DNA from: an uncultured Clostridium sp.
GTDB lineage: Bacteria; Bacillota; Clostridia; TANB77; CAG-508
Length of the DNA stretch: 32,000 bases
Direction: 5' to 3'
NCBI GenBank assembly: GCA_900556135.1
Contig: USNR01000001.1
Coordinates: forward strand, 16,485-48,484
The notes under the pieces were generated by a model, which was not told the DNA's origin, searched no databases, and saw only the letters and a list, made by a program, of their open reading frames with translations. The translations under genes were made by a program, and so were the position numbers. This document shows, in pieces, positions 2,359 to 29,350 of this stretch. Position 1 is the stretch's first letter. Every line of letters starts with the position of its first letter.

Positions 2359-2413
2359 CTTTTTTCCTTCCAATTCCTATCTTATTAAACAATTTCATCT
2401 TTCAAACAATTCC

Positions 2414-2555
2414 AATGCATCTTATATGTTAATAATTATCGTTCTCCAGGGAACCCAGAAATTTTCCTTATGAAACTATGATAAAGACGAACATTCATAG
2501 TTAAGAGAAAATTCCAATCCCTAGCTTTCTCTAATTACTAACATATAAGAGCATT
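2414..2555 (+). repeat. Long-hairpin element, copy C1 (conserved core 2447-2523 inside a locus-specific ~24-bp outer stem)
   Basis: AATGCATCTTATATGTTAATAATTA (2414-2438) pairs with TAATTACTAACATATAAGAGCATT (2532-2555). The core CAGGGAACCCAGAAATTTTCC..ACTATGA-TAAAGACGAACAT-TCATAGT..GAGAAAATTCCAATCCCTA matches 17437-17513 directly. It matches 16860-16933 and 29079-29153 as the reverse complement. Confidence 0.8.
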
Positions 2556-2605
2556 ATAGATTTCATTATTAAATTGCACGCTTTAAAATGTCATATAATT
2601 GAATT

Positions 2606-4653: not shown

Positions 4654-6105
4654 TTACATAAATAGCGCTGGTCTAAATCCATGATATGATTGTGCTTGAT
4701 CTGGTCCACCTAAACGATATCCCGCTGGGCTTCCCTCTCCGCTATGTCTTCCAACATACGCTCCTCCTCTTCTAGTACATATAAGACTTGTACTAGATGT
4801 TTTTTCCGTTGTCCATTCCCATACATTTCCTCCCATATCATATATATTACAAACCGGTGTAGTTTGTCCCGTTGGTATTAAAACAGATTCACTTGCAGCC
4901 TTCGTTTTGCTTGCCCCTTTTATATCTTTATATGAAGTTAATCCTAAATCATTATAGTTCCCCTCTTTTGAATCCGAACCATAATTAGTCGCTTTAGTTT
5001 GAATAAAAGCTATTGCTGTATCCCAAGCATAACTACTACATAATTTTGTTTTAGCTTTATAGCCTTGTTTAGTTGCCATTCCCTCTGCTAAGGTTTGTGA
5101 TTGCGTCTTAGTTACCCAATTATATGGAACCTGACTCTTCTTCACAGTTACTGTATTACTTACAGTTGCTCCACTCACTCTCATAGTTTGTGATGCAGTA
5201 CTTTCTTTGTCTCCTGCTTCATATCTTCCTATATAATATCCTTTATATGATTCTACGCTTGCTTTCTCATCCGAAGGCATAGATTCTACATAATAGTATG
5301 TAGTATCAGCACTATTAATCTTTTCCGACTTAGTTGTTGTGTCTATTGTACCTGTAGATGTATTAATTGAATATGCAGCTCTCTTATAATCTGCTATACT
5401 TTCTACTGGTATCCACACAAACTGATTTCCGTCTTTATCTTCTATTACTATTCCGCCTGATACTTCTGTTGCTGAATCATATGCTATTTTAAATCCACTT
5501 GGAATTACTACTCTATCTTCTCCTATTAATATTGGTGTATTTACAGTTTTGCTTACCATAATATCTTTTTGTGCCTCATTTAATGAAATTGAATATGTTT
5601 TGGAGCTTATTATTGCTGTAGATTTATGGTTTTCTACATCTGTTGCTTCTACTGTAATTTCATATATTGTTGCTTCTTCTAGCCCTGTAAATGTATATGT
5701 TGTTGCTCTACTGTTTGTGCTATCTGTTTGCCAATCTCCATCTCCAATTTTGTATCTTATTACTGCAATTCCGCTTTTTGTTTCTGTAACATCAGCCTTT
5801 ACAGTAATGCTATATTTGGTTCTATCTGTAACTTTAACACTATTTATTTTTGGTGCATCTGTGTCAGCTACAACTTTTACTCCGTCTTCTGTGTATTCAT
5901 CGTCTTGTTTTAATTCATCTAATTTTGCTTGTCCTTCTTCTTGTGCTAAGGTTTGGTTTTGCTCTGTTTCTCTCATAATAGTTATCAAACCATTTTTCCC
6001 CACAGTAGTATTAAGTGTTATTCCTGCTAAAATCATTATAACCACAATAGTAATTACAAGCGCTACCAAAGTTATTCCTTTAGAATCTTTCACAATTTTT
6101 TTCAT
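4654..6105 (-). CDS. Pilin-like N-terminal helix + Fn3-like domain + FGE-sulfatase (SUMF1/C-type-lectin-like) domain surface protein
   Basis: The N-terminus MKKIVKDSKGITLVALVITIVVIMILAGITL is prepilin-like (G|ITLVA). An Fn3-like segment follows (DAPKINSVKVTDRTKYSITVKA...YEITVEATD). The C-terminal part has FGE-domain motifs: FVWIP, GYYIGRYEAG, NIYDMGGNVWEWT, RRGG and GFRPAL. Confidence 0.8.
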   Translation of the reverse strand: MKKIVKDSKGITLVALVITIVVIMILAGITLNTTVGKNGLITIMRETEQNQTLAQEEGQAKLDELKQDDEYTEDGVKVVADTDAPKINSVKVTDRTKYSITVKADVTETKSGIAVIRYKIGDGDWQTDSTNSRATTYTFTGLEEATIYEITVEATDVENHKSTAIISSKTYSISLNEAQKDIMVSKTVNTPILIGEDRVVIPSGFKIAYDSATEVSGGIVIEDKDGNQFVWIPVESIADYKRAAYSINTSTGTIDTTTKSEKINSADTTYYYVESMPSDEKASVESYKGYYIGRYEAGDKESTASQTMRVSGATVSNTVTVKKSQVPYNWVTKTQSQTLAEGMATKQGYKAKTKLCSSYAWDTAIAFIQTKATNYGSDSKEGNYNDLGLTSYKDIKGASKTKAASESVLIPTGQTTPVCNIYDMGGNVWEWTTEKTSSTSLICTRRGGAYVGRHSGEGSPAGYRLGGPDQAQSYHGFRPALFM

Positions 6106-10869: not shown

Positions 10870-11121
10870 TTACAAATCTTCTATTATATTATTAGCCATT
10901 CTATTGGCTATTGTTTCTGGCTGAATTGCTGATAAAATTACATTTCCCGTATCTATCAGGATTACGGCTCTCGTTTTTCTTCCACAAGTTGCATCTATTG
11001 CAACTCCTCTGTCTTTAGCTTCTTGAATCATTCTTTTAACTGGCGCGGCTTCCGGACTGACAATAGCAATTACTCTGTTTGCTACCACAATATTGCCAAA
11101 GCCAATATTGATAAAATGCAT
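10870..11121 (-). CDS. remA: Extracellular matrix / biofilm regulator RemA (DUF370)
   Basis: [71 protein letters not shown] is the highly conserved RemA sequence. Confidence 0.9.
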
Positions 11122-16414: not shown

Positions 16415-16780
16415 CTAAATATATAAAATAGCTCTAAAACCAACATCTTCAGAGGTATCAGTAGGGTAAACCACATAGCTTCTATTTTCCTCAACATAAT
16501 TACCAGAACTTTTTATTTTGCCAAACTCAGAGTTATCAATTCCCAAAATTTTATCTATGTCACTATCAGCTGTTTCTAATTGCTCTTGCTCATTTGCACT
16601 AGCATTTGAATACTTATCTCTACTCTCGCCTGATTTTTTTATAATTCCATTATTATCTAATACCAATGTAATGCTTATTCCTGCTAATATTAATAACACA
16701 ACAATCGTTACCACAAGTGCCACTAATGTGATGCCCGAGTGTCTTCTTTCCTTTTTTAAAATTTTACATTTGTTTTTCAT
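16415..16780 (-). CDS. Small (121 aa) pilin-like N-terminal helix protein
   Basis: MKNKCKILKKERRHSGITLVALVVTIVVLLILAGISITL is paralogous to the N-termini of the 4654-6105 and 28105-28956 proteins. The ATG at 16780 has a GGAG RBS. The track start at 16858 lies inside the conserved non-coding leader. Confidence 0.75.
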   Translation of the reverse strand: MKNKCKILKKERRHSGITLVALVVTIVVLLILAGISITLVLDNNGIIKKSGESRDKYSNASANEQEQLETADSDIDKILGIDNSEFGKIKSSGNYVEENRSYVVYPTDTSEDVGFRAILYI

Positions 16781-16826: not shown

Positions 16827-16970
16827 CTAGCGCATTTGCTAATAAATATGAGACACAATTAGGGATTGAAATTTTCTCTTAACTATGAACCCACGTCTTT
16901 AACGTAGGACGATAAGGGAAATTTCTTTTCCTAATTTGGAACATATTATTAGTCAAAATGAGCGGTTGTC
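16827..16970 (-). repeat. Long-hairpin element, copy C2 (core 16860-16933), part of the 5' leader of the small pilin-like gene
   Basis: The minus strand reads GACAACCGCTCATTTTGACTAATAATATG...TAGGAAAAGAAATTTCC...TAAAGACGTGGG...TCATAGTTAAGAGAAAATTTCAATCCCTAATTG...CATATTTATTAG..ATGCGCTAG. It is homologous to 29046-29189 (same strand) and to 17400-17546 (opposite strand). Confidence 0.8.
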
Positions 16971-17060
16971 CTTCGCATTATTTTCTAATTTAATGCTCTA
17001 GTTTCAATGTTTACAAGCATTTCAAAATTTGGTATTAAGTATATTTTTGTTCATACTGAA

Positions 17061-17089
17061 AGTATAGCAATAAACTGCGAAAAAATCAA
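17061..17089 (-). promoter_or_regulatory. Sigma-A type promoter of the small pilin-like gene leader
   Basis: The minus strand reads TTGATT-N17-TATACT with TGC immediately upstream of the -10 (extended -10). Hexamers and spacing are identical to 29283-29311. Confidence 0.6.
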
Positions 17090-17399
17090 CATTTGAAAAC
17101 AAAAAGTTTTAAACAAATTATAAGAAAAATATTTTTTATAAGTCATTAAAAATTACTAGGAATGTTAGAATGTCACGGATATATACTAATAAAAAAAGAA
17201 TGCCAGATTTTCTTAAGTAATATACTTAATTCAAAAATAATTTTTATGTAACCAAATTTTATTTTATCTTGCTTAAATTCTATAACAAACCGTTTTATTT
17301 TTCAAGTCATTTTATCCTCAAATTTTAATTAAAGTAAAAATGAAAGTAATTTTCTATCACAAATTAAGGTCTATAATTTTTGTCAATTATTTTTCTTCT

Positions 17400-17546
17400 G
17401 ACATCCGCTCATTTTGCATAATAAAATGATGTAAATCAGGGAACCCAGAAATTTTCCTTCTGCAACTATGATAAAGACAAATGCTCATAGTTAAGAGAAA
17501 ATTTCAATCCCTAATTGTACATCATTTTTATTATGCCATGCGCTAG
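17400..17546 (+). repeat. Long-hairpin element, copy C3 (core 17437-17513), orphan copy in inverted orientation relative to C2
   Basis: GACATCCGCTCATTTTGCATAATAAAATGATGTAAATCAGGGAACCCAGAAATTTTCCTTCTGCAACTATGATAAAGACAAATGCTCATAGTTAAGAGAAAATTTCAATCCCTAATTGTACATCATTTTTATTATGCCATGCGCTAG. The outer stem GCATAATAAAATGATGTA / TACATCATTTTTATTATGC is nearly perfect. Confidence 0.8.
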
Positions 17547-19678: not shown

Positions 19679-19814
19679 GAGTTTTATTTTATATAATAAG
19701 AAAGCTATATAACTTTCCTATTATATAAAATACCTTGCATAGAGAATTTATTTCATAAATTTTTGCACATGAACAAACTTACTGAAATTTCTAATTTTAT
19801 AGAAAAACATAAGA

Positions 19815-19847
19815 AATAAAAAAAGACTGAAAATTGAAAATTTTCAG
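19815..19847 (-). terminator. Rho-independent terminator after the M23 peptidase gene
   Basis: The minus strand reads CTGAAAATTTTCAATTTTCAG followed by TCTTTTTTTATTTC. Confidence 0.5.
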
Positions 19848-23544: not shown

Positions 23545-23745
23545 TAGCAAAACTTGGCAAGTTTGCTCGATTTATGGGAAGTTTCCGACATTTTTTGCAT
23601 TTTTCATAAGAGAACAAATCTGAGATTTTCAATTTTCAGTTTTTTCCTACTATTTATGCTTTTCTATAAAATTAAAAATTTCATTAAATTTTCCGTGCAA
23701 TGTATTTTATATAATATGAAACCCTATATAATTTTCTTATTTATA

Positions 23746-28104: not shown

Positions 28105-28956
28105 CTATTTTTTGTAATTAATGTTCATAGTAGTATTTGTATAATAAGTACTATTCCACTCTTCATTCCAACCGTCTGGTTTCTTCCCTGCCATAAACGG
28201 TACATTTATAGTAATGTCTACTGAACTACCAAATGCATAAGCTCCTACTGTAACTACCTTATCTGGTATCGTTATCAATGTCAGACTACTTCCACTAAAA
28301 GCATAAGAGCCTATTTTCTCTAATTCATCTGGTATATCTATATTAGTTAAGCTAGTATTTTCATAGAAAGCTGAGCTTCCTATAGTTTTTAATGTACTGC
28401 TAAGATATACGTTTTTTACAGCCCTACATCCAGCAAAAGAATAGTCTCCAACTTCTTCTATACCGTCTGAAATAGTTATTTTTGTAACAGTTTTATTACC
28501 ACTGAACCAACTTGCGCTTCCTCCTATGTGAACTGTTTCTCCATTATGTGGCAATATATTTTTACCTTCTATTCTTTTTACTGCTACTCCATTTATATAA
28601 TTTGGAATAACAATTTCTGTTTCGGTACCTTTATATTGCGTTATTACTAACTCCCCATTATCTTCTGTTTCACAGGCCCAATCACTTGGATTTTCAGGCT
28701 CCACAACCTCTATTGTTTTTCCGTGACTCTCTATCCAATCATTTGCTTCTTTCATACCATTTTGTTCATTTACTTTTGCTTGTCCATATTTTTCTCTACT
28801 CTCTTCAGCTTTTGCTACTATTCCATTATTTTGTAAAATTAAATTAATACTCACCCCTGCCAATATCATTAAAATAACTATTGTAACCACAAGAGCCACT
28901 AAAGTTATACCTTTTTCCTTCCTTACTTTCTTAAAAATTTTGCATTTGTATTCCAT
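28105..28956 (-). CDS. Pilin-like N-terminal helix + BspA-type leucine-rich-repeat surface protein
   Basis: The N-terminus is MEYKCKIFKKVRKEKGITLVALVVTIVILMILAGVSINL. The C-terminal part has repeats of the LRR_5/BspA type (I.IPNYINGVAVKRIEG, ITISDGIEEVGDYSFAGC, VYLSSTLKTIGSSAFYEN, IDIPDELEKIGSYAFSGS, ITIPDKVVTVGAYAFG). Confidence 0.8.
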   Translation of the reverse strand: MEYKCKIFKKVRKEKGITLVALVVTIVILMILAGVSINLILQNNGIVAKAEESREKYGQAKVNEQNGMKEANDWIESHGKTIEVVEPENPSDWACETEDNGELVITQYKGTETEIVIPNYINGVAVKRIEGKNILPHNGETVHIGGSASWFSGNKTVTKITISDGIEEVGDYSFAGCRAVKNVYLSSTLKTIGSSAFYENTSLTNIDIPDELEKIGSYAFSGSSLTLITIPDKVVTVGAYAFGSSVDITINVPFMAGKKPDGWNEEWNSTYYTNTTMNINYKK

Positions 28957-29045
28957 AATATTTTTTCTCCTTAAAAATTTTTTCCTTTTGTAAAATACTT
29001 ATTTTTACTAATACTTTCGAAGCTCTGCGTTAGTATAAGCTCAAC

Positions 29046-29189
29046 CTAGCGCATTGACTAATAAATATGAGACACAATTAGGGATTGAAATTTTCTCTTA
29101 ACTATGAGCTCACGTCTTTATCATTAGTTGCAGAAGGTAAATTTCTTTTCCTAATTTGGATCATTTTATTAGCCAAAAGAGCGGATGTC
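29046..29189 (-). repeat. Long-hairpin element, copy C4 (core 29079-29153), part of the 5' leader of the LRR pilin-like gene
   Basis: The minus strand reads GACATCCGCTCTTTTGGCTAATAAAATGATCCAAATTAGGAAAAGAAATTTACCTTCTGCAACTAATGATAAAGACGTGAGCTCATAGTTAAGAGAAAATTTCAATCCCTAATTGTGTCTCATATTTATTAGTCAATGCGCTAG. It aligns along its whole length with 17400-17546. Confidence 0.8.
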
Positions 29190-29282
29190 CTTCGCATTAT
29201 TTCATCACTAAATGTTCAAGTTCTAACGTTTCCAAGCATTCTTTTATTTGGTATTAAGTATATAACTTAAGGATTTATTGAA

Positions 29283-29311
29283 AGTATACCAATAATCTAC
29301 TGAAAAATCAA
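29283..29311 (-). promoter_or_regulatory. Sigma-A type promoter of the LRR pilin-like gene leader
   Basis: The minus strand reads TTGATT-N17-TATACT with TGG immediately upstream of the -10. Hexamers and spacing are the same as at 17061-17089, within a homologous block of about 285 bp. Confidence 0.6.
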
Positions 29312-29350
29312 TATTTAATAATAAAAAGTTTTTATTTTGAAAGTCGACTT

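Follow-up and report, generated by a model that had tools for sequence, protein, structure and literature searches.

Two homologous blocks in front of pilin-like genes

The window analyzed here is a stretch of 32 kb from an uncultured Clostridium sp. (assembly GCA_900556135.1, contig USNR01000001.1). It contains two blocks, A (16827-17110) and B (29046-29330), each of which carries a promoter and a predicted long leader with an extended hairpin in front of a gene for a pilin-like protein (genes A and B, respectively). According to our analysis, the two blocks appear to be decayed members of a family of invertible promoter switches (invertons) that precede such genes in uncultured gut Clostridia, and the hairpin in their leaders has the distribution of a dispersed palindromic repeat.

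An earlier, sequence-only reading of this DNA had proposed that the blocks are homologous, that they share one promoter and that their leaders are conserved as non-coding sequence, and these observations were borne out. The MAFFT alignment of the blocks has a mean column identity of 85%, and an nhmmer search with block B as the query retrieved block A with E = 1e-39. The promoter scan returned TTGATT-N17-TATACT with TG before the -10 element on the minus strand at 17089-17061 and 29311-29283, exactly where it had been placed before. With transcription assumed to start ~7 nt after the -10 element, the predicted leaders are ~273 nt (A) and ~319 nt (B) long; each lies before a pilin-like gene, and the long hairpin is present in both in the same orientation. 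The upstream ATG-initiated open reading frames (ORFs) differ, the homologous ATG opening 9 codons in A and 31 in B, and the conservation of the leaders is therefore non-coding. Between A and B, 24 of the 29 promoter positions are identical, as are 73% of the stretch from the -10 element to the hairpin, 127 of the 145 hairpin positions (88%) and 47% of the sequence between the hairpin and the ATG; in the coding sequence the identity is 72% over the first 195 nt and 54% over the following 170 nt.

Gene A (16415-16780, minus strand) encodes an N-terminally anchored pilin-like protein of 121 amino acids (aa) with the motif ..SGITLVALVVTIVVLLILAG.., recognized in the family alignment. The product of gene B (28105-28956, minus strand) has 283 aa and combines a pilin-like N-terminus with a BspA-type leucine-rich repeat (LRR) domain (Pfam LRR_5, E = 2.5e-25). 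Both proteins have the N-terminus ..GITLVALVVTIV.. and, as read from the sequence, a putative G| cleavage site followed by ITLVA, with no Glu at +5. The Pfam N_methyl matches remained below the cut-off (E = 0.0017 for gene A and 4.9e-4 for gene B), with PF07963 scores of 18-20 bits versus the 21.2 bits required. No NCBIfam pilin model matched either protein, and for gene B NCBIfam gave weak LRR-adhesin similarity only. The label “pilin-like” is a weak one, and genes A and B may represent a distinct class of N-terminally anchored adhesins.

Inverton-like architecture of the related loci

Relatives of the blocks were collected by scanning a metagenome collection with the right arm of the hairpin, which yielded 13 loci, all from one metagenome (loci are denoted by L and a number). 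A common layout was found in L005, L010, L011, L013, and L015. It begins with a conserved promoter-like site, P1 (cTTGAAA-N14/15-TGtTATAAt), followed ~55 nt further on by the site TTAAGT-ATATT-ACTTAA. A stretch of ~170 nt with the second promoter, P2 (TTGATT-N17-TATACT), leads to the inverted site TTAAGT-AATAT-ACTTAA, and the layout is completed by a spacer (0 or ~45-70 nt), one to three long hairpins, the ribosome-binding site (RBS), and the pilin-like gene. The inverted sites, 17 bp long and 186-189 bp apart around P2, are perfect in L005, L010, L011, and L013 and have one mismatch in L015. Each site is composed of palindromic 6-nt arms and an asymmetric 5-nt core, as is typical of the sites at which recombinases cross over.

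P2 is kept in all modules with the ON orientation; every intact module has it between its two sites, as does locus A of the window. The segment between the sites of L013 is 76-81% identical to those of the other modules when reverse-complemented and 62-66% identical when read forward, and both outside flanks are collinear. Because the identity is high only after reverse-complementing and the flanks remain collinear, the L013 segment is inverted exactly between the sites. Across the paralogous loci both orientations are present, L013 being inverted relative to L005, L010, L011, and block A. The module, consisting of the promoter, the TTAAGT-N5-ACTTAA site, the spacer, and the hairpin or hairpins, precedes genes for proteins with ..GITL[VL]AL[VA]VTIVVLLIL.. 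at blocks A and B and in L010, L011, L013, L015, L016, and L017.

P1 has the same position in L010, L011, L013, and L005 and also occurs in another species (L031, L052, and L066); it is directed into the switch from a position ~55 nt beyond the left inversion site. The presence of P1 beside P2 suggests a logic more complex than ON/OFF, such as interference between convergent promoters in the OFF state. The spacers fall into type-1 (blocks A and B, L004, L007, L013, and L016) and type-2 (L002, L005, and L015), and none is present in L010 and L011.

At L016, a single hybrid site was observed (11075-11091), in which the outer flank of the left inverted repeat (IR-L) is joined to the outer flank of the right inverted repeat (IR-R). 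The segment is precisely missing there, and P1 alone is left before the hairpin and the gene.

State of the putative switches in the window

At locus A, the predicted promoter-like P1 (17277-17305, minus strand; TTGAAA-N17-TAGAAT with TGt before the -10 element; scan score 10/12) lies outside and upstream of IR-L and is directed towards gene A. IR-L (17213-17229) is an intact 17-bp site, TTAAGT-ATATT-ACTTAA in the minus-strand reading, identical to the left sites of L005, L010, L011, and L013. It is followed by the former invertible segment (17045-17212, minus strand), about 167 nt long and in the ON orientation, which contains P2 with its extended -10 element (17061-17089). This segment is 70-75% identical to those of L005, L010, and L011 in the forward direction, and 80% identical to that of L013 only after the latter is reverse-complemented. 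Of IR-R, the remnant ATATACTTAATACC is left (17031-17044), and the left half-site TCCTTAAGTA has been deleted. The alignment shows this as a 10-nt gap relative to L002, L005, L010, and L011, and the same deletion is present in L017; no second inversion site with up to one mismatch was found at locus A. Between the inversion site and the hairpin lies an alignment-defined type-1 spacer (16971-17030, minus strand).

At locus B, P2 (29283-29311, minus strand), with the same sequence and extended -10 element, is followed by IR-R (29254-29270; TTAAGT-TATAT-ACTTAA in the minus-strand reading), a single site with no partner nearby, and by a type-1 spacer recognized in the alignment (29190-29253, minus strand). 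No P1 and no left site within three mismatches were found at this locus, where the stop codon of yunB (29351) lies just 40 nt upstream of the -35 element. An inverted-repeat pair around the segment is present at neither locus, half a site having been lost at A and a single site remaining at B. Since both site pairs are incomplete, the window copies are derivatives of the inverton family and not intact members. Both switches are degenerate and probably no longer invert, and with the sites decayed at both loci, P2 is probably locked ON, facing its gene.

The surviving sites, 17213-17229 and 29254-29270, are in inverted orientation 12 kb apart, and their cores differ at one position (AATAT versus the reverse complement of ATATA). 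In principle, a large inversion between them could place gene B or the hairpin copy that follows the neighboring major facilitator superfamily (MFS) gene beside the other promoter. A third pilin-like gene in the window (4654-6105, minus strand; 483 aa) starts 49 nt after fmt, gave weak, mostly sub-threshold FN3 and FGE-sulfatase-like matches, and belongs to a different N-terminal subfamily; no inversion site, P2, or hairpin accompanies it.

Inverted repeats across the gene family in other species

A scan of a genome collection with the N-terminal protein alignment revealed more than 480 relatives. The best 79 loci were taken; nearly all of these come from metagenome-assembled genomes (MAGs) of uncultured gut Clostridia, with many paralogues each. 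Of the 75 upstream windows, 24 contained a pair of perfect inverted repeats (15 nt or longer, spaced by 100-220 nt), compared with one of 271 control windows from the same loci and ~0.05 per 75 in shuffled sequences. The arms are palindromic and the 5-nt cores vary by locus, as represented by the site families ATTAAAT-N5-ATTTAAT, TTCGTAAAGT-N5-ACTTTACGAA, and AATGAATAGTGAATAAT; arms of the TTAAGT-N5-ACTTAA type were found in L031, L052, and L066. In these loci the leaders are short, the gene following the right site after only about 10-160 nt. The best internal promoter mostly faces away from the gene, as is expected if most members of such a family are OFF at any time.

The inverton is a well-known type of switch in gut bacteria, including Clostridia (PMC11892184). 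The site sequence TTAAGT-N5-ACTTAA was not found in our literature search, and a paper on TANB77 pilins describes a pilus gene cluster and nothing on such switches (PMC11680825). The main new result of our analysis, at the level of sequence, is that it shows a large family of pilin-like surface proteins to be under inverton-type control in gut Clostridia that are still uncultured. The sequence-only reading had sensed co-regulation of this surface-protein family, which is better explained at the DNA level, by a family of invertible promoters.

A dispersed palindromic repeat in the leader

The hairpin spans about 144 nt from GAC(A/G)TCCGCTC to AATGCGCTAG and forms an imperfect palindrome. The sequence-only reading missed two things: that in the relatives inverted repeats of the recombination type lie on either side of the promoter, and that the window contains four copies of the hairpin, not two. 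These four are in both orientations, and two of them stand at unrelated sites. Copies A (16827-16970, minus strand; nhmmer 153 bits, covariance model 170.7 bits) and B (29046-29189, minus strand; covariance model 160.4 bits) lie in the predicted 5' untranslated regions (UTRs) of genes A and B. Copy C (17400-17546, plus strand) follows the MFS gene in the opposite orientation, 187 nt from IR-L, so that it mirrors copy A, and no gene comes after it on its strand. Copy D (about 2405-2560, plus strand; covariance model 102 bits) separates nusB from xseA and is antisense to both genes. All four strains compared (the window and L098-L100) have this copy, and its outer stem differs in sequence and is still complementary.

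The count in one metagenome exceeds 20 hairpin copies, of which about half belong to leaders of pilin-like genes and the others lie between unrelated genes; nine further solo copies, besides C and D of the window, were found in the metagenome loci. The sequence-only reading had raised the possibility that every gene behind this leader belongs to the same family. This holds for the full module, which precedes pilin-like genes only, and does not hold for the hairpin alone, which occurs at about 11 unrelated sites. One leader of the family (L015, 3520-3606) contains the left arm only.

With regard to copy C, inversion of P2 would lead to its transcription as the sense strand, and in L009 deoD lies 234 nt downstream of the corresponding copy. 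To judge from its position, the arrangement may have been left behind by a switch that once worked in both directions. One pilin-gene leader in L011 (468-949, minus strand) contains three hairpin units in tandem, with a period of 169 nt and a conserved 24-nt spacer, and a close relative of this gene in L013 has one unit. The tandem copies share the spacer, which points to duplication and not insertion.

The fold of the hairpin is well beyond chance, with z-scores of -7.3 (plus strand) and -7.6 (minus strand) for copy C. Across 18 copies, 95.6% of the cells are paired and six pairs carry compensatory changes, and the covariation score was reached by none of 500 shuffles and exceeded all slid controls. 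As both pairing and covariation exceed the controls, the hairpin is maintained. Searches elsewhere were negative: exact-pattern scans with the right arm gave no hit in the GTDB representative genomes or in IMG/VR, blastn of leader B against plasmids and phages gave no match, and neither nhmmer nor the covariance model detected the hairpin in the 79 family loci of other species, the four window copies being the only covariance-model matches.

The hairpin shows the properties of miniature inverted-repeat transposable elements (MITEs), namely terminal inverted repeats, small size, absence of coding sequence, and multiple copies, as well as those of REP/ERIC/Correia-like repeats, being an imperfect palindrome that is intergenic, dispersed, and found in both orientations. 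Direct repeats that would represent target-site duplications were not seen by eye around the copies. Judged by its sequence and distribution, the hairpin is a lineage-specific dispersed palindromic repeat of the REP/ERIC/Correia-like kind. Plain segmental paralogy would account for the blocks without any function, with promoter, leader, and 5' coding region duplicated together and a selfish, MITE-like palindrome hitch-hiking. The homology does begin at the promoter and reach ~200 nt into the coding region, and the repeat is dispersed and restricted to one lineage. However, conservation is higher in the hairpin and P2 than in the coding sequence and the spacers beside them, stem complementarity has been kept through sequence change, copy D included, no target-site duplications were seen, and copy D, the sole site compared across strains, shows no presence/absence polymorphism. 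We regard this explanation as quite improbable.

Is the leader a riboswitch?

The sequence-only reading favored a dedicated cis-regulatory leader RNA, which would bind a metabolite or a protein, or be processed, and thereby co-regulate the pilin-like family. Some findings agree with this proposal: the full module always stands before pilin-like genes, the hairpin is better conserved than the coding N-terminus, and the stems carry compensatory changes. On the other hand, the leader structure is a simple long palindrome, a single interrupted hairpin and not a multi-helix aptamer. Searches of the window and six related loci against Rfam 15 returned nothing at the gathering score, and relaxing the threshold to E up to 10 for the leader gave chance matches only (E > 4). 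In neither leader was an intrinsic terminator found on the sense strand, the minimum-free-energy and centroid folds of both leave the RBS unpaired, and no anti-terminator or RBS-sequestering alternative structure is evident. Moreover, the number of hairpins varies from one to three between close paralogues, one family member retains the left arm only, and the 79 family loci of other species lack the hairpin. The reading itself held that occurrence of the block before unrelated genes would speak against it, and the hairpin is indeed present at unrelated intergenic sites, in the opposite orientation and antisense to local genes. A ligand-sensing, riboswitch-like leader was therefore not upheld, and we consider a dedicated regulatory RNA of any of these kinds rather unlikely. 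A family-specific promoter and leader module does exist before the pilin-like genes; what did not stand is its interpretation as a sensor RNA, in place of which we see a decayed inverton with a dispersed palindromic repeat.

The AT-rich leader of the pilin gene in L017 contains a GC-rich block of ~70 nt (GTCGACCGTCTTATCGAAGC..CCGCACGGAAGACGTG.., about 4668-4740), which is repeated as the reverse complement in L012 (about 840-910) and has no Rfam match. The block was considered as a candidate c-di-GMP riboswitch, which was rejected for lack of Rfam support.

Joins at hairpin A and the contiguity of the window

The window is 99.8-100% identical to contigs of the human-gut MAG GCA_902476995.1, of an ENA assembly (sample label SAMN03283275), and of the Logan contigs of SRR1761702. 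Its G+C content is 28.9%. It contains genes for housekeeping functions and for sporulation, of which almost all are on the minus strand (xseAB, nusB, fmt, def, priA, rsmE, a P-type ATPase gene, spoIID, the sigF operon, rplM, yunB, and sipL). Intergenic repeats of another family, about 100-130 nt long, unrelated to the hairpin and ending in GACTGAAAATTGAAAATTTCAG.TTTGTT, are present at 19714-19841 and 23625-23721. The two copies form an inverted pair around the 3.8-kb stretch M23 peptidase-spoIID-sigF-spoIIAB-spoIIAA, and by eye the repeat recurs near the RNase R gene in L002 (about 1830-1975).

Three assemblies with flanks at least 99.8% identical join different partners exactly at hairpin A. 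In the window (16827-16973) the order is MFS gene, hairpin, gene A; in L017 (4517-4660) the MFS gene and the hairpin are followed by a gene for a 388-aa LRR pilin-like protein; in L002 (2808-2954) RNase R and Sm_multidrug_ex genes precede the hairpin and gene A. This is the pattern expected of reciprocal inversion between inverted hairpin copies. Together with the mosaic leaders and their three spacer types, it agrees with an explanation in which the hairpin is a DNA-level homology block that exchanges promoter modules and pilin-like genes, antigenic variation being achieved by shuffling. However, sample names and near-identity indicate that the assemblies come from the same or very similar short-read samples, and an identical 61-nt block in the left arm of the hairpin is common to the window, L017, and L002. 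An exact repeat of this length is a classic cause of mis-joins, so that the joins may be assembly artefacts; the Logan unitigs also end at hairpins (L003, L018, and L102), and no rearrangement was seen between strains at the solo copies D and C. Such a recombination cassette seems unlikely to us as the explanation of the blocks. The contiguity of the window at 16827-16973 should not be taken for granted, as real recombination and mis-assembly would equally explain the joins.

Two more far-reaching roles for the hairpin, as a programmed recombination or homology cassette that re-assorts inverton-promoter modules and genes, or as a new class of 5'-UTR RNA specific to this family, can be envisaged as a long shot with some small promise. 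If the hairpin were such a recombination cassette, it would explain the three joins and would add a second layer of antigenic variation above promoter inversion.

Probable explanation: a decayed switch with a repeat in its leader

The explanation that we consider probable is that blocks A and B are paralogous copies of one expression cassette, which combines a decayed inverton-type switch with a dispersed palindromic repeat in the leader. In the intact relatives, P1, a site, ~170 bp with a strong P2, and the same site inverted would constitute a phase-variation switch. A site-specific recombinase encoded elsewhere would flip the segment and turn P2 towards or away from the pilin-like gene. At locus A, the 10-bp deletion has taken half of the right site, and locus B has the right site only, which would leave P2 fixed ON at both. 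The hairpin, of which one to three copies separate the right site from the RBS, lies outside the invertible segment and would therefore be transcribed in the 5' UTR, where its RNA is predicted to form an interrupted duplex of about 50 bp that leaves the RBS free. Most economically, the lineage-specific repeat would have entered the 5' UTRs of a single branch of the family and been carried along as that branch spread. By analogy with Correia elements and with the RNase III-processed 5'-UTR hairpins of Firmicutes, the most likely role of the hairpin would be in mRNA processing or stability, for example as a substrate of a double-strand-specific RNase or as a protective stem. A role as a ligand or signal sensor is unlikely.

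Several observations weigh against this explanation. The inversion was seen between paralogous loci and not at one locus in one population, and a contig search aimed at finding one locus in both orientations gave contigs of the same few assemblies only. Pfam revealed no recombinase among the ORFs of the window, and phmmer searches with approximate Hin and XerD query sequences gave no match in about 100 related loci, where all ORFs of 100 aa or more were covered. The conserved promoter-like P1 outside the switch complicates a simple ON/OFF model. As for the hairpin, it is the best-conserved part of the A/B block (88% versus 72% in the adjacent coding sequence), and this conservation fits selection or gene conversion and is silent on function. 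In the stems, G-U mismatches are as frequent as A-C mismatches (about 5 versus 4), and the solo copies in informative contexts comprise two in sense and two in antisense orientation; consequently, nothing marks RNA rather than DNA as the functional form.

Relation to known systems and significance

The inverton and the hairpin repeat both belong to known kinds of element, of which they are new members. Well-known invertible promoters include fimS of E. coli, the capsular-polysaccharide promoters of Bacteroides, and the RecV-dependent switches of Clostridioides difficile (cwpV, flgB, and cmrRST). The modules described here resemble them in the short inverted repeats, the segment of about 130-190 bp, the sigma-A-type promoter, and the position upstream of a surface-protein gene. 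Across the paralogous family members both orientations occur, each genome has many switches, and no recombinase gene lies next to them, in line with RecV and Mpi, which act in trans. They differ in the TTAAGT-N5-ACTTAA site family with palindromic arms and locus-specific 5-nt cores, in the second conserved promoter outside the switch, and in the target, a pilin-like family of uncultured Clostridia; in addition, both window copies are degenerate.

The hairpin, in turn, shares with the Correia elements of Neisseria, the enterobacterial ERIC/IRU and REP/BIME repeats, and the pneumococcal BOX and RUP elements the form of an imperfect palindrome (here of ~145 nt) that is non-coding, multi-copy, intergenic, and present in both orientations. 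Like these, it frequently lies in untranslated regions, 5' or 3', and its RNA would give a long duplex; the duplex of Correia elements is cleaved by RNase III. Unlike these, it has no sequence relation to them and no target-site duplication or transposase link was found for it, about half of its copies lie in the leaders of one gene family, some form tandem 169-nt arrays, and it belongs to one uncultured lineage. The c-di-GMP-II riboswitch upstream of C. difficile pilA1 is similar in being a long structured leader before a pilin gene in a low-GC, Clostridium-like organism, whereas the leader studied here is a single long palindrome with no Rfam 15 riboswitch match and no expression platform.

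Multigene families of phase-variable surface proteins are exemplified by Mycoplasma vsa/vsp and the Bacteroides PS loci. The pilin-like family resembles them in its many paralogues, conserved N-terminus and 5' region, variable C-terminal domains, and predicted stochastic ON/OFF control. It differs in that each gene would have its own promoter switch instead of sharing one expression site, and in its class-III-like (prepilin-like) N-terminus.

Our analysis replaces an attractive but unsupported riboswitch reading and flags the hairpin as a repeat that can break or mis-join assemblies of the host organism. The site motifs (TTAAGT-N5-ACTTAA, ATTAAAT-N5-ATTTAAT, and TTCGTAAAGT-N5-ACTTTACGAA) can be used in PhaseFinder-type read analyses of existing gut metagenomes. 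To our knowledge, phase-variable adhesin repertoires, well known in Bacteroides, are barely described for Clostridia. The architecture described here suggests that an uncultured lineage of spore-forming gut Clostridia, and at least several related species, have a large family of LRR/FN3-tipped pilin-like surface proteins under individual DNA-inversion switches.

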